Source: Escherichia coli (lineage in GTDB: Bacteria > Pseudomonadota > Gammaproteobacteria > Enterobacterales > Enterobacteriaceae). From it: a DNA stretch of 64,000 bases. The notes under the pieces were generated by a model. The model searched no databases, was not told the DNA's origin, and saw nothing but the letters and a program-made list of their open reading frames with translations. Of the stretch, positions 2,487 to 48,639 are shown in pieces. The translations under genes and the position numbers were made by a program. The stretch lies in NCBI RefSeq assembly GCF_003334315.1, contig NZ_QOWR01000023.1. One strand, given 5' to 3'. Numbering within the stretch: the first letter of the stretch is position 1; the number at the start of each line of letters is the position of its first letter.

Positions 2487-3869
2487 ATGAAGAGTGAAGT
2501 GTTGTCCGTTAAAGAGAAAATTGGTTATGGCATGGGAGACGCCGCCAGCCACATTATTTTCGATAACGTAATGTTATATATGATGTTCTTTTATACCGAT
2601 ATTTTTGGCATTCCTGCCGGTTTTGTCGGAACCATGTTTTTGGTCGCTCGTGCACTGGATGCGATTTCCGATCCTTGCATGGGGTTGTTGGCCGATCGAA
2701 CGCGCTCTCGCTGGGGTAAATTTCGTCCGTGGGTACTGTTTGGCGCACTGCCATTCGGGATCGTCTGTGTACTGGCCTATAGCACTCCAGATCTCAGTAT
2801 GAACGGCAAAATGATCTATGCAGCAATTACTTACACCCTACTTACCTTACTTTATACCGTCGTCAATATCCCTTACTGCGCATTGGGTGGTGTAATCACC
2901 AATGACCCGACTCAGCGTATCTCGCTGCAATCCTGGCGTTTTGTGCTGGCGACCGCGGGAGGCATGCTTTCTACTGTTCTGATGATGCCACTGGTTAATT
3001 TAATTGGCGGTGATAATAAACCACTCGGTTTCCAGGGCGGTATCGCGGTCCTTTCCGTGGTGGCATTCATGATGCTGGCATTTTGTTTCTTCACCACTAA
3101 AGAACGCGTTGAAGCACCACCTACAACAACGTCTATGCGGGAAGATTTACGTGATATCTGGCAAAACGACCAGTGGCGGATTGTCGGTTTACTAACCATT
3201 TTCAATATCCTGGCGGTGTGCGTACGCGGTGGGGCGATGATGTATTACGTCACATGGATTTTGGGCACGCCGGAAGTGTTTGTCGCTTTTCTCACCACTT
3301 ATTGCGTGGGTAACCTGATTGGTTCCGCACTGGCAAAACCTCTGACCGACTGGAAATGTAAAGTCACTATCTTCTGGTGGACGAACGCCCTGCTGGCAGT
3401 GATTAGCCTCGCGATGTTCTTTGTTCCCATGCAGGCCAGCATCACTATGTTTGTCTTCATCTTCGTGATTGGTGTGTTGCATCAACTGGTGACACCTATC
3501 CAGTGGGTAATGATGTCCGATACCGTCGACTACGGCGAGTGGTGCAATGGTAAACGCCTGACCGGGATCAGTTTTGCTGGCACGCTGTTTGTGCTCAAAC
3601 TGGGGTTGGCCTTCGGCGGCGCTCTTATCGGCTGGATGCTGGCTTATGGCGGATATGATGCGGCAGAAAAAGCGCAGAACAGCGCCACGATTAGCATCAT
3701 TATTGCGCTATTCACGATTGTTCCGGCGATCTGTTATTTGCTGAGCGCGATTATCGCTAAACGCTACTACTCACTCACGACGCACAATCTGAAAACCGTT
3801 ATGGAACAGCTGGCTCAGGGTAAACGCCGTTGCCAGCAACAATTCACCTCTCAAGAAGTGCAGAACTAA
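2487..3869 (+). CDS. yicJ: GPH-family glycoside/xyloside:cation symporter YicJ
   Basis: ORF track (2430-3869); known N-terminus MKSEVLSVKEKIGYGMGD begins at ATG 2487; 12-TM-like hydrophobic profile; synteny with yicI. Confidence 0.9.
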   Translation: MKSEVLSVKEKIGYGMGDAASHIIFDNVMLYMMFFYTDIFGIPAGFVGTMFLVARALDAISDPCMGLLADRTRSRWGKFRPWVLFGALPFGIVCVLAYSTPDLSMNGKMIYAAITYTLLTLLYTVVNIPYCALGGVITNDPTQRISLQSWRFVLATAGGMLSTVLMMPLVNLIGGDNKPLGFQGGIAVLSVVAFMMLAFCFFTTKERVEAPPTTTSMREDLRDIWQNDQWRIVGLLTIFNILAVCVRGGAMMYYVTWILGTPEVFVAFLTTYCVGNLIGSALAKPLTDWKCKVTIFWWTNALLAVISLAMFFVPMQASITMFVFIFVIGVLHQLVTPIQWVMMSDTVDYGEWCNGKRLTGISFAGTLFVLKLGLAFGGALIGWMLAYGGYDAAEKAQNSATISIIIALFTIVPAICYLLSAIIAKRYYSLTTHNLKTVMEQLAQGKRRCQQQFTSQEVQN

Positions 3870-16364: not shown

Positions 16365-19542
<3,178 letters not shown>

Positions 19543-45127: not shown

Positions 45128-45156
45128 GAAAAAGGGCTGGTATTCCAGCCCTTTTG
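45128..45156 (+). terminator. rho-independent terminator after tdh
   Basis: Hairpin GGGCTGG-tatt-CCAGCCC followed by TTTTG. Confidence 0.75.
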
Positions 45157-45362
45157 CCTGAGGATAATCCGTTAAATATGTAAAATCCTGTCAGTGTAAT
45201 AAAGATATCGTAATTGCGCTGATCTCTTATATAGCTGCTCTCATTATCTCTCTACCCTGAAGTGACTCTCTCACCTGTAAAAATAATATCTCACAGGCTT
45301 AATAGTTTCTTAATACAAAGCCTGTAAAACGTCAGGATAACTTCAGAGGTCGTCGGTAATTT

Positions 45363-46397
45363 ATGATGAACAGCACCAATAAACTTAGTGTTATTATTCC
45401 GTTATATAATGCGGGCGATGATTTCCGCACTTGTATGGAATCTTTAATTACGCAAACCTGGACTGCTCTGGAAATCATTATTATTAACGATGGTTCAACG
45501 GATAATTCTGTTGAAATAGCAAAGCATTACGCAGAAAACTATCCGCACGTTCGTTTGTTGCATCAGGCGAATGCTGGCGCATCGGTGGCGCGTAATCGTG
45601 GGATCGAGGTGGCAACGGGCAAATATGTCGCTTTTGTCGATGCTGACGATGAAGTCTATCCCACCATGTACGAAACGCTGATGACCATGGCGTTAGAGGA
45701 CGACCTCGATGTAGCGCAGTGCAACGCTGACTGGTGTTTTCGTGAAACGGGAGAAACCTGGCAATCCATCCCCAGCGATCGCCTTCGCTCAACCGGCGTA
45801 TTAACCGGCCCGGACTGGCTGCGGATGGGGCTTTCTTCGCGCCGTTGGACTCACGTTGTCTGGATGGGGGTTTATCGCCGCGATGTTATTGTTAAAAATA
45901 ACATTAAATTTATTGCCGGATTACATCATCAGGATATTGTCTGGACAACAGAATTCATGTTTAACGCTTTGCGTGCGCGATATACCGAGCAATCGTTATA
46001 TAAATATTATCTGCATAATACGTCAGTGAGTCGGTTGCATAGACAAGGGAATAAAAACCTTAATTATCAACGTCACTATATTAAGATTACCCGCCTGCTG
46101 GAGAAATTAAATCGAAATTATGCCGACAAAATTACGATTTATCCGGAATTTCATCAGCAAATAACTTACGAAGCATTGCGTGTTTGCCATGCGGTGCGCA
46201 AAGAGCCGGATATTCTTACCCGCCAACGGATGATTGCCGAGATATTTACTTCCGGTATGTATAAGCGCCTGATTACCAATGTGCGCAGCGTGAAGGTGGG
46301 TTACCAGGCGTTACTGTGGTCTTTCCGCTTATGGCAATGGCGCGACAAAACGCGGTCGCACCATCGCATTACGCGTAGCGCCTTTAATTTGCACTAG
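45363..46397 (+). CDS. waaH: GT2-family glycosyltransferase YibD (WaaH)
   Basis: ORF track 344 aa; GT2 N-terminus LSVIIPLYNAGDDF and DAD motif (VDADDEV). Confidence 0.88.
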   Translation: MMNSTNKLSVIIPLYNAGDDFRTCMESLITQTWTALEIIIINDGSTDNSVEIAKHYAENYPHVRLLHQANAGASVARNRGIEVATGKYVAFVDADDEVYPTMYETLMTMALEDDLDVAQCNADWCFRETGETWQSIPSDRLRSTGVLTGPDWLRMGLSSRRWTHVVWMGVYRRDVIVKNNIKFIAGLHHQDIVWTTEFMFNALRARYTEQSLYKYYLHNTSVSRLHRQGNKNLNYQRHYIKITRLLEKLNRNYADKITIYPEFHQQITYEALRVCHAVRKEPDILTRQRMIAEIFTSGMYKRLITNVRSVKVGYQALLWSFRLWQWRDKTRSHHRITRSAFNLH

Positions 46398-47343
46398 CGT
46401 TAAGTTTTGCCGCTTCGGGCTGCTTGCCCCAGCCTTGCCACTGATGCTGGAAGTAAACGATCAGCGTGCTCTGGCTGATGCTTTCGCTTAATACTTCAAA
46501 GAAGCGATTAGCATAAACAGGTTCTATCGGTTTCTTCGGTTTGCACAGCTTCACGCCACGGAACGGATTACGCGGTGCATCAGGCACAGCGTTTTTCGGC
46601 GGTGTAGAAGTATCAACCTGCGGTTCATTCAGCAAGCTGCTGGCTTTCACCAGCGTAATGTCTGGCGGCAGGTTATAAACCATCTGTTGCAACACGCGTA
46701 CCGTTGCAGGGTGAGGATGCCCAATGGCAATGGTCGAACCGTTGCGACGCGCCAGGTCAATTGCGCGATTAAATTGCACACGGATGTCCGCTTCATTTTG
46801 CGAATCGTCGAGGAATACCTTCCGTTTGATCACCTTCACGCCAGTGCCTTGCGCGGCGCGCATCGCCTGGGTATTACCGATGGTTACGCTGTCGAGGAAG
46901 TAAAGATTGTAACGCTCCAGCGCCTGCATCACTTTCTGCATACCAAACAGGTTAGAGGTCATCTTGCTGCCCATGTGGTTGTTGATCCCCACGGCATAGG
47001 GCACGTTATTGACCGCACTACGAATAATGCGCTCAATTTCGTCGCTGCTCATCTCCGGGCGTAGCGTATTTTTCTCCAGCGGCTGTTTACTCAACGGTGC
47101 CATCGGGAGATGAATCAACACTTCGTGCCCGCTGTTATGCGCTTTGGTCGCCATCTCTCTGGCGTGCGGTGAATCGGGTAATACAGCGACGGAGATAGCG
47201 GAAGGCATCGCCAGCACCTGGTTTTCGTTGTGCGGGCGATACCCAAAATCATCAATGACGATGGCAAGTTTGCCAGCAAGTACGGGGGAGGAGAGCGCCA
47301 ACAGAGCGGCAAATGCAAGAACGTTACGACGAAATGGAAACAA
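46384..47343 (-). CDS. yibQ: divergent polysaccharide deacetylase family protein YibQ
   Basis: ORF track 319 aa; signal peptide MFPFRRNVLAFAALLALSSPVLA; downstream of envC. Confidence 0.85.
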   Translation of the reverse strand: MFPFRRNVLAFAALLALSSPVLAGKLAIVIDDFGYRPHNENQVLAMPSAISVAVLPDSPHAREMATKAHNSGHEVLIHLPMAPLSKQPLEKNTLRPEMSSDEIERIIRSAVNNVPYAVGINNHMGSKMTSNLFGMQKVMQALERYNLYFLDSVTIGNTQAMRAAQGTGVKVIKRKVFLDDSQNEADIRVQFNRAIDLARRNGSTIAIGHPHPATVRVLQQMVYNLPPDITLVKASSLLNEPQVDTSTPPKNAVPDAPRNPFRGVKLCKPKKPIEPVYANRFFEVLSESISQSTLIVYFQHQWQGWGKQPEAAKLNASAN

Positions 47344-47346
47344 AAC

Positions 47347-48606
47347 TTATCTTCCCAACCACGGCTGTGGATTGACCGCCTGACCCTGGCGGCGAATTTC
47401 GAAATAGAGTGAAGGCCGACCCTGACCGCCACTGCTGCCCACCAGTGCAATCGGCTGGCCCGCGCGAACCTGCGAACCAACGCTCACCAGTGCGCTCTGA
47501 TTATAGCCGTAAAGACTCATGTCGCCTTTACCATGCTCAACCACCACCACCAGACCGTAGCCTTGCAGCCAGTCAGCCAGAATCACCCGACCGTCGGCAA
47601 TCGCTTTAACTTCAGTACCTTCAGAAGCACCGATAACCATACCTTTCCAGCGTAATTCACCCTGTAGCTGTTCGCCATAGCGATGCAGCGTCGGCCCGCG
47701 AACCGGCCAGAATGCCTGACCACGCGGCGCGCCCAGACCACCGGTACGGGACATCAGCGATTTTTCGCTTTCGGTCGGTTTGTAGGTGGTGCCTTTGCGC
47801 GTCGCTTCTTTCTGGCGGTCGCGAACCGCCTGGGCCTCACGTGCTTCTCGTTCTGCACGCGCTTTCGCCGCGGCTTCCGCACGGGCAATGCTGTTACGCA
47901 GACGGGATTCGTTGGCGCGCAGCTCGCTCAACTGTTGCTGACCTTGCTGGATGGAAGACTCCAGCCCTGCCAGCGTCTTTTTACGCTCGTTCAGCGCCTG
48001 AGTCAGTTTCGCCTGTTGGGCGCGCTGCTCATATAACAGCGTTTGTTGCTCGCTCTGTTTCTCTTCCAGTTCAGCACGCTGCATGGCGACTTCTTCACGC
48101 GTTTGCTTCAACTGGGCAATGGTTTCTTGTCGCGCCTGGTTGAGATAGCCGAAATAAGCCTGTAAACGCTGTCCACGCTGGCTTTCTTCACCGCTGAGAA
48201 TCAGCTGAATACCGGTATGCTCGCCCTGACGGAATGCGGCATCCAGTTGTGCGGCGAGGCTGCGCTCCTGGGCGGCTTTTTGCTGCTCCAGTTTGGCAAT
48301 CGACGCGTTCATCTCATCAATCTGTTTATTGAGTTGATTGAGCGTGTTTTGCGTTTCGCGCAGCTTACGGGTGGCTTCAGAGATCGCTTCTTCCTGCTTT
48401 TTCAATTGTGCGAGCAGGCTTGCGCGTTGTTGTTGCTTTTGGCGTACCGCGCGCTCTTTTGCGGCGATGTCAGCCTGAATAGATTTGAGTTGGTCACGCT
48501 CATCCGCGTGGGCGGAAAAGGCGCACAACAATACGCCAGCGCTAAGAACGCTGGCGTAGATGATGGGCCTGATTGCAAACCTGCGCGGTTTCACGGCCCG
48601 TGTCAT
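47347..48606 (-). CDS. envC: murein hydrolase activator EnvC (LytM/M23 domain, coiled coil)
   Basis: ORF track; N-terminus MTRAVKPRRFAIRP; long coiled-coil region, C-terminal M23 domain. Confidence 0.92.
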   Translation of the reverse strand: MTRAVKPRRFAIRPIIYASVLSAGVLLCAFSAHADERDQLKSIQADIAAKERAVRQKQQQRASLLAQLKKQEEAISEATRKLRETQNTLNQLNKQIDEMNASIAKLEQQKAAQERSLAAQLDAAFRQGEHTGIQLILSGEESQRGQRLQAYFGYLNQARQETIAQLKQTREEVAMQRAELEEKQSEQQTLLYEQRAQQAKLTQALNERKKTLAGLESSIQQGQQQLSELRANESRLRNSIARAEAAAKARAEREAREAQAVRDRQKEATRKGTTYKPTESEKSLMSRTGGLGAPRGQAFWPVRGPTLHRYGEQLQGELRWKGMVIGASEGTEVKAIADGRVILADWLQGYGLVVVVEHGKGDMSLYGYNQSALVSVGSQVRAGQPIALVGSSGGQGRPSLYFEIRRQGQAVNPQPWLGR

Positions 48607-48639
48607 GGTATTAATCGCCTTTCCCCTCATGGGGAGGGA

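Follow-up and report, generated by a model that had tools for sequence, protein, structure and literature searches.

The genes waaH (yibD) and yibQ (sddA) form a convergent overlapping gene pair in the analyzed window, a 64-kb stretch of the E. coli chromosome: the two coding sequences lie on opposite strands and have their 3' ends in common, sharing the 14 nt TTAATTTGCACTAG at positions 46384-46397. The overlap is real and already known, as it has long been part of the reference annotation and the RNA ends at this locus are contained in published maps. We consider it probable that this is a plain convergent overlap which arose by drift of the yibQ stop codon, and not a dedicated regulatory device. 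Most likely, the overlap itself has no function beyond compactness.

According to the ORF list and RefSeq, the waaH CDS extends from 45363 to 46397 on the + strand (344 aa) and terminates with a TAG at 46395-46397, while the yibQ CDS extends over 46384-47343 on the - strand (319 aa) and terminates with a TAA, the complement of 46384-46386. The shared stretch is read on both strands, as WaaH ..(F)NLH* on the + strand and as YibQ ..(A)SAN* on the - strand. The waaH 3' end is ...GCC TTT AAT TTG CAC TAG, that of yibQ, on the reverse complement, ...GCT AGT GCA AAT TAA, and the codon phase within the overlap is 1:1 / 2:3 / 3:2. Within waaH, only three sense codons of yibQ remain until its frame is closed. 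A convergent overlap of 14 bp between a yibD stop at 46397 and a yibQ end at 46384 had been proposed in the first-pass annotation of this DNA, and it agrees to the base with the sequence, the ORF list and RefSeq. The names yibD and yibQ, given there to the two genes, are borne out by Pfam, NCBIfam and RefSeq.

Both genes are genuine protein-coding genes, as established by their family matches, by yibQ orthologs in 80 loci and by the biochemistry of SddA. RefSeq annotates the waaH product as a UDP-glucuronate:LPS(HepIII) glycosyltransferase of the GT2 family; residues 9-137 of WaaH match Pfam PF00535, and residues 1-334 match the NCBIfam equivalog NF007482 with 635 bits. yibQ, the last gene on the - strand after gpmM and envC, is annotated in RefSeq as a member of the divergent polysaccharide deacetylase family, and residues 28-238 of its product match Pfam PF04748 (E = 5.5e-76). 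YibQ has been renamed SddA and described as a periplasmic deacetylase of denuded septal peptidoglycan strands, whose C-terminal residues 239-319 (81 residues) are disordered and not needed for activity (bioRxiv 10.1101/2025.02.18.638797).

Within E. coli the junction is nearly ubiquitous. With a 2.1-kb query (bases 45300-47400), identity is 100% in strain HS30-1 and 97-99% in almost all other complete E. coli genomes; the 221-bp junction was found in 5,423 of 5,426 complete E. coli genomes. The identical 14-nt overlap is annotated by RefSeq/PGAP in HS30-1, K-12 C3026, 2017C-4173W12, and K-12 MG1655, where yibQ and waaH occupy positions 3788101-3789060 and 3789047-3790081, respectively (b3614/b3615). 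The shared nucleotides are polymorphic among E. coli strains (GCAC / GCGC / ACGC) with both stops kept, and the variants give rise to WaaH H344R or YibQ A317V, substitutions which are tolerated. Strain G5 carries an IS1A-associated deletion in waaH, of which the last 114 nt remain, and the yibQ end is intact. In the O157:H7 strain NE 1092-2, a one-base insertion together with a substitution shifts the WaaH frame and results in a 338-aa product; its stop lies 5 nt short of that of yibQ, and the overlap is absent in this strain.

At higher taxonomic levels, we scanned for YibQ orthologs in one genome per species and retained 80 loci. A waaH homolog converging on yibQ is present in about 26 of these, and most sampled Enterobacteriaceae have no waaH beside yibQ. 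The 26 waaH-carrying species reveal a 14-nt overlap in eleven cases, a 4-nt overlap in five, directly abutting stops in five and a gap in the remaining five (6-14 nt in three species, 72-113 nt in two). The 14-nt group is composed of E. coli, E. albertii, three or four Citrobacter species, Salmonella enterica subsp. diarizonae, and one species each of Leclercia, Enterobacter, Silvania, and Cedecea. Overlaps of 4 nt (CTAG, TTAA or similar) include Kluyvera and Pseudescherichia; in these genera, the modal CTAG/TTAA type of overlap occurs at this very junction. Abutting stops are found in the C. freundii group and in other Kluyvera, whose WaaH is only 64-71% identical. The short gaps of 6-14 nt belong to Kosakonia and Superficieibacter, and the spacers of 72-113 nt in Pseudocitrobacter are filled with REP-like palindromes.

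The two proteins differ strongly in the conservation of their ends. In 18 orthologs of the E. coli type, the C-terminus of WaaH is conserved up to the stop (..A-(L/F/V)-N-L-x*). YibQ contains an invariant QWQGW motif, beyond which the tail comprises 0-14 aa and is devoid of sequence conservation. In all eleven species of the 14-nt group the yibQ stop is located at the same site, as the antisense of the WaaH codons xTT-AAy or xTC-AAy (Leu/Phe/Ile-Asn), where TTA gives TAA and TCA gives TGA. Thus, it is the conserved WaaH end that determines the site of the YibQ stop; consequently, the overlap amounts to exactly 14 nt wherever the yibQ frame reaches it. The third position of the Leu/Phe/Ile codon opposite the yibQ stop is T or C in 11/11 species; the usual Leu codon is CTG. 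No overlap longer than 14 nt was found among the sampled species, and in E. coli the next in-frame yibQ stop would come five codons further. Judging from these sequences, the T or C at the third position together with the lack of longer overlaps could mean mild selection on the end point of YibQ. As a counterpoint, genera vary freely in their terminal residues, and the species cannot be counted as independent samples. Two Citrobacter genomes have lost waaH with a breakpoint 3 nt beyond the yibQ stop and an intact yibQ end; here, the last waaH bases remain only as the final yibQ codons, and the tdh terminator follows next.

Overlaps of this kind are ordinary. An annotation matching the 64-kb window contains ten convergent gene pairs, two of which overlap, namely waaH/yibQ by 14 nt and ligB/yicG by 4 nt at 18925-18928; the remaining eight pairs are separated by spacers of 11-168 nt. 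For E. coli, 58 (PMC2174442) or 75 (PMC4161906) convergent overlaps were reported, and the phase 1:1 / 2:3 / 3:2 is the commonest one (49%) among convergent overlaps of at least 5 nt (PMC2174442). With three sense codons before the stop, two overlaps among ten pairs in the window and 58-75 published cases, the waaH/yibQ overlap is no more than chance would give.

In K-12, the steady-state yibQ mRNA ends inside waaH. Published 3' end maps, the kind of data which the first-pass annotation had proposed for a check, list a 'primary' yibQ mRNA terminus on the - strand at 46322-46331 (K-12 + 3789113-3789122, peak 3789114; PMC10687069, Supplementary Data 3 and 4). Mapped through K-12 sequence and annotation, the peak corresponds to window position 46330, which places it 54 nt beyond the stop of yibQ and 4 nt beyond the stem of a 13-bp hairpin (GCGAUGGUGCGAC-CGCGUUUU-GUCGCGCCAUUGC) at 46334-46367. 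The yibQ mRNA hence extends at least 54 nt into waaH, and its 3' UTR of about 54 nt (46330-46383) is located wholly within the waaH CDS. The hairpin lies in this 3' UTR, on the - strand, begins 17 nt past the yibQ stop and carries no U-tract; the + strand of the same bases encodes WaaH ..QWRDKTRSHHR... Its folding energy is -28.1 kcal/mol compared to -20.9 +/- 2.9 for shuffled sequences (z = -2.5), and 2 of 200 shuffles were as stable. The TRS dataset contains the same hairpin just upstream of the yibQ 3' terminus and gives a 3' UTR of 55 nt (PMC10687069). A stable stem-loop without U-tract is thus found immediately upstream of the mapped steady-state 3' end.

Sequence comparison leads us to reject this hairpin as a conserved RNA element. 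No consensus structure emerged from RNAalifold for the region in an alignment of 18 species, and covariation in the same species was absent, with 63.7% of cells paired vs 62.5% in shuffles and a score below the shuffle mean; an Rfam match was likewise absent at E <= 1. The hairpin is strong in E. coli and E. albertii only, and it is specific to these two and partly carried by the amino-acid conservation of WaaH. A longer-range structure was also rejected: the inverted repeat 46342-46351 / 46404-46413 and 191-nt folds of both strands (z = -1.0 and -1.4) do not go beyond shuffles.

An intrinsic terminator at or near the junction was not found in a consensus scan, which yielded four weak sites vs 2.9 expected from shuffles and just a weak 6-bp stem at 46460-46479 that is no better than shuffles. 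The first 96 nt past the waaH stop (46395-46490) fold no better than shuffles either. We therefore reject a junction terminator of the intrinsic or bidirectional type; the strong hairpin at 46334-46367 lacks both a U-tract and an A-tract. The first-pass annotation had concluded that the shared ends leave no room for separate terminators. This holds insofar as the scan reveals none between the genes. The yibQ terminator, however, is not missing, but appears to be embedded in the waaH CDS.

Antisense to waaH, a bicyclomycin-sensitive (Rho) region peaks at about 46060 on the - strand (PMC7815308, Supplementary file 2), which is about 270 nt beyond the mapped yibQ 3' end. The peak corresponds to K-12 + 3789384 with a Rho score of 5.55 (p = 1.8e-15) and upstream/downstream reads of 106/28 without BCM and 187/274 with BCM (PMC7815308), values obtained in 800-nt windows of coarse resolution, whose reads could have an origin other than yibQ. 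As a side remark, the signal could reflect antisense promoters inside the low-GC waaH gene, and not read-through from yibQ. In the - strand RNA, C outnumbers G between 46333 and about 46225. Immediately past the hairpin, C amounts to 23 and G to 14-16 per 78 nt, and parity is reached by about 46270, so that the bias is modest. Discrete Term-seq 3' ends are absent from K-12 3788600-3789799 in Supplementary file 1 of Adams et al. 2021 (PMC7815308); entries for this region are confined to the Rho table of that study and the TRS dataset.

On the + strand, the waaH unit is bounded upstream by the intrinsic terminator of tdh (AAAAAGGGCUGG-UAUU-CCAGCCCUUUU) at 45130-45160, with a 3' end mapped at K-12 - 3790284 (PMC10687069). 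The 5' UTR of waaH contains a hairpin (CAGGCUU..AAGCCUG) at 45294-45331, and an RNA 3' end is mapped at about 45331 (K-12 - 3790113; PMC10687069, Supplementary Data 3). A further Rho region in sense direction peaks at 45402, 39 nt into waaH (K-12 - 3790042; PMC7815308, Supplementary file 2), with a Rho score of 5.77 (p = 7e-13) and upstream/downstream reads of 95/20 without and 154/187 with BCM. For the 3' end of the waaH mRNA, there is no entry in the data examined from PMC7815308 and PMC10687069.

These observations can be combined into the following scenario. In E. coli and the ten other species of the 14-nt group, the yibQ frame traverses the would-be spacer, crosses the waaH stop and terminates at the first in-frame stop (TAA/TGA). 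Because there is no spacer, the message of the yibQ operon (gpmM-envC-yibQ) would end inside waaH. Rho probably releases RNA polymerase farther downstream, and the RNA may then be trimmed back to the hairpin. We infer release and trimming since the pattern matches the transcripts of Dar & Sorek, which have a precise steady-state end after a uridine-free stable stem-loop and rut sites downstream (PMC6061677). The waaH message would end inside yibQ, presumably also in a factor-dependent or diffuse manner. Drift of the yibQ stop is in good agreement with the variable YibQ tail, the conserved WaaH end, the substitutions tolerated in E. coli and the dispensable SddA C-terminus, and furthermore with the lack of a junction terminator, the mapped yibQ 3' end, the Rho region and the commonness of convergent overlaps. 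On the other side, the invariable T or C in 11/11 species and the limit of 14 nt hint at selection on the yibQ stop, and an AlphaFold3 model that puts the SddA end into the active site of Prc leaves room for a role in turnover. The explanation as a whole is further weakened by the coarse 800-nt Rho signal and by a hairpin whose strength is confined to E. coli and E. albertii and for which covariation is absent.

Three other readings of the junction have to be weighed against stop-codon drift. An annotation artefact, in which one frame ends earlier and no true coding overlap exists, might draw on the last 11-14 residues of YibQ, which are unconserved, and on the curated NCBIfam model of WaaH, which ends at residue 334/344. 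However, both stops are unambiguous in the sequence, and the first in-frame stop is what closes a reading frame. WaaH is conserved to the stop in the 18 orthologs of the E. coli type and the yibQ stop recurs at the same site in eleven species; moreover, full-length mature SddA and a version with a C-terminal FLAG on the 319-codon frame had the expected size (bioRxiv 10.1101/2025.02.18.638797). The ortholog comparison thus refutes an artefact for practical purposes and leaves it a negligible probability: neither frame ends earlier, and both stop positions of the first-pass annotation are genuine. A second reading is that the overlap was selected for a double role, as the WaaH C-terminus and as an SddA degron recognized by the protease Prc. 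In favor of it, SddA levels are raised in a prc mutant, and the last SddA residues, KFNASAN, are placed in the active site of this tail-specific protease by an AlphaFold3 model (bioRxiv 10.1101/2025.02.18.638797). The yibQ stop site is kept in eleven species via rare Leu codons, and the waaH deletions in E. coli G5 and in the two Citrobacter species spare the yibQ end. Yet any functional gene would be expected to keep its ORF intact after such a deletion, and genera with the same overlap differ widely in their terminal residues (SAN, NAD, TPG, SEG, KTD, NPG, NTD), while YibQ elsewhere ends 0-5 residues after QWQGW. The authors of the SddA paper themselves state that the Prc cleavage site is unknown. 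Selection for such a double role therefore appears unlikely.

The third reading concerns regulation. Regarding INTERFERENCE, the transcriptional interference raised in the first-pass annotation is possible in principle, since the transcripts would be expected to overlap. An excludon-like arrangement would go further: induction of waaH by phosphate starvation would lower yibQ/sddA and perhaps envC, either by convergent transcription or by complementary 3' ends serving as an RNase III substrate, and would link the LPS core to septal peptidoglycan. The locus offers some of the ingredients, as the yibQ 3' UTR is fully antisense to waaH and no waaH terminator precedes yibQ. In O157:H7, waaH is induced 46- to 80-fold by low Pi or by a pst mutation, and in K-12 at low Pi it reaches read counts of about 12,700 compared to about 2,260 for envC. 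Convergent excludons with short spacers number 165 in E. coli (ExcludonFinder, PMC12288877), but the waaH/yibQ pair is absent from the main text of that study. In wild type relative to the phoB mutant, envC shifts by -0.4 log2, a direction that agrees with an excludon; this shift is not significant (p = 0.19), while PhoB raises waaH about 4-fold at low phosphate. Most waaH-sense transcription in LB is already halted at the 5' end of the gene (RNA 3' end at about 45331, Rho region at about 45402), and thus few polymerases converge on the overlap. The scarcity of waaH beside yibQ in the sampled Enterobacteriaceae also argues against the coupling as a general feature of yibQ. A lowering of yibQ/sddA by waaH induction is, on balance, improbable, and we regard it as highly improbable that the overlap acts as a phosphate-starvation excludon in which RNA polymerase and antisense RNA enter the 3' end of the gpmM-envC-sddA operon. 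If it did, the septal deacetylase, and perhaps EnvC, would be lowered exactly during remodeling of the LPS core, and the hairpin at 46334-46367 would be both a part of WaaH and a stability element of the opposing mRNA.

For biology at large, a plain overlap by stop-codon drift is of little importance, being one among several dozen convergent overlaps in E. coli. It is of practical relevance for genetic work at this locus. A deletion or tag at the 3' end of waaH takes away the hairpin in the 3' UTR of yibQ/sddA as well, and possibly the last codons of that gene, and changes to the sddA C-terminus alter the stop region of WaaH. Standard designs for in-frame deletions of waaH in which only the last few codons are kept would leave the yibQ stop in place, but would remove the hairpin of the yibQ 3' UTR. 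Due to the shared 3' ends, phenotypes of waaH and sddA alleles need to be checked for effects on the partner gene. Furthermore, the pair provides a small example of how the conserved C-terminus of one protein can determine where the gene on the opposite strand stops, and of a Rho-type 3' end hairpin that can sit within coding sequence.

Compared with known systems, bidirectional intrinsic terminators solve the same problem, the ending of two converging transcripts in one place. In waaH-less Citrobacter, yibQ precedes such a bidirectional-looking element, the tdh terminator AAAAAAGGGCUGG..CCAGCCCUUUU, whereas the E. coli junction is devoid of it and the hairpin at 46334-46367 has neither tract. 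Excludons (ExcludonFinder, PMC12288877) are likewise convergent, without spacer and with at least one mRNA reaching into the partner gene; they are, however, defined by mutually exclusive expression or by RNase III processing of a dsRNA duplex, which would be hypothetical for the present pair. There is also a resemblance to the Rho-dependent transcripts of Dar & Sorek 2018 (PMC6061677), which likewise have a 3' end a few nucleotides after a stem-loop without U-tract; downstream of it, our case shows a modest excess of C over G and a bicyclomycin-sensitive region of 800-nt resolution. In contrast to their transcripts, the stem-loop and the presumed rut site are located inside a converging CDS and not in an intergenic region. 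Finally, the pair shows no essential difference to the tail-to-tail overlaps of prokaryotes in phase (123:132), which also consist of two real genes on opposite strands with a short 3' overlap, although its 14 nt exceed the length of the modal 4-nt CTAG/TTAA type. Its origin fits the stop-codon-mutation model favored in PMC2174442 and PMC4161906.

In every independent loss or truncation of waaH (45363-46397, + strand), the reading frame of the convergent yibQ (46384-47343, - strand) is unbroken. These cases comprise E. coli G5 (locus L002, 3248-4114 in its own coordinates), E. coli O111:H2 12A (L005, 1691-2512) and two Citrobacter species (L012 and L014, both 3440-3580). In the two Citrobacter loci, the waaH breakpoint lies 3 nt beyond the yibQ stop, so that a waaH fragment of approximately 17 nt remains solely as the end of yibQ; next after this end and the breakpoint follows the tdh terminator, which is bidirectional in appearance.

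O157:H7 NE 1092-2 carries an inserted A and a C-to-A change in the loop (GCGCGAAAAAAACGCGG; L004 1265-1300, corresponding to about 46345 in the window) of the hairpin that the yibQ 3' UTR forms within the waaH coding sequence (46334-46367, - strand). These changes shift the waaH frame and give a product of 338 aa, whose stop is located 5 nt short of the yibQ stop, and thus the 14-nt overlap of both genes (46384-46397) is abolished. PGAP annotates the frameshifted gene as a pseudogene. In a different O157:H7 strain, EDL933, deletion of waaH caused a complementable biofilm phenotype (10.1101/536201).

Among the sampled genomes, a sizeable spacer between waaH and yibQ was identified only in the two Pseudocitrobacter loci, L061 (3434-3546) and L079 (3383-3454), where it spans 72-113 nt and is filled by REP-like palindromes, e.g., GCCGGATGCGGCTACGCCTTATCCGGCCTAC. 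On the protein level, the curated NCBIfam equivalog model NF007482 (334 positions) covers WaaH residues 1-334 and leaves out the C-terminal 10 residues, including those encoded by the overlap.

With an overall GC content of 46%, below both yibQ (52.6%) and the window (49.8%), waaH is AT-rich; its middle part (45900-46150) drops to 32-40%, and its 3'-terminal 135 nt (46262-46397) reach 54%. The majority of sampled Enterobacteriaceae have no waaH beside yibQ. Both its AT-richness and its frequent absence from this position are consistent with an LPS gene that was gained horizontally and is patchily distributed.

At its other end, waaH is preceded by a 5' UTR hairpin (45294-45331) with a published RNA 3' end directly downstream, and a Rho-dependent region lies at about 45402, 39 nt inside the ORF. 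Taken together, these features look like premature termination holding waaH off in LB. In K-12, the region upstream of waaH showed no PhoB binding in one ChIP-seq study (10.1101/2023.02.07.527549).

On the opposite side of yibQ, its TTG start is located 3 nt past the envC stop. The mechanically called envC ORF (47347-48630) begins at an upstream in-frame ATG and encodes 427 aa, compared to 419 aa (1260 nt) in RefSeq. Elsewhere in the window, ligB (+ strand, ORF end 18928) and yicG (- strand, ORF end 18925) form a second convergent overlap, with 4 nt in common (18925-18928).

Differences between the window and the near-identical E. coli strain HS30-1 are confined to the first ~2.65 kb, and in the matching region HS30-1 carries an IS1 within yicJ. 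At 616-2194, the tRNA-Sec gene (2100-2194, - strand) adjoins a 394-aa ORF (616-1800, - strand), a tyrosine recombinase/integrase according to the annotation in close relatives; the location is the usual selC island insertion site.
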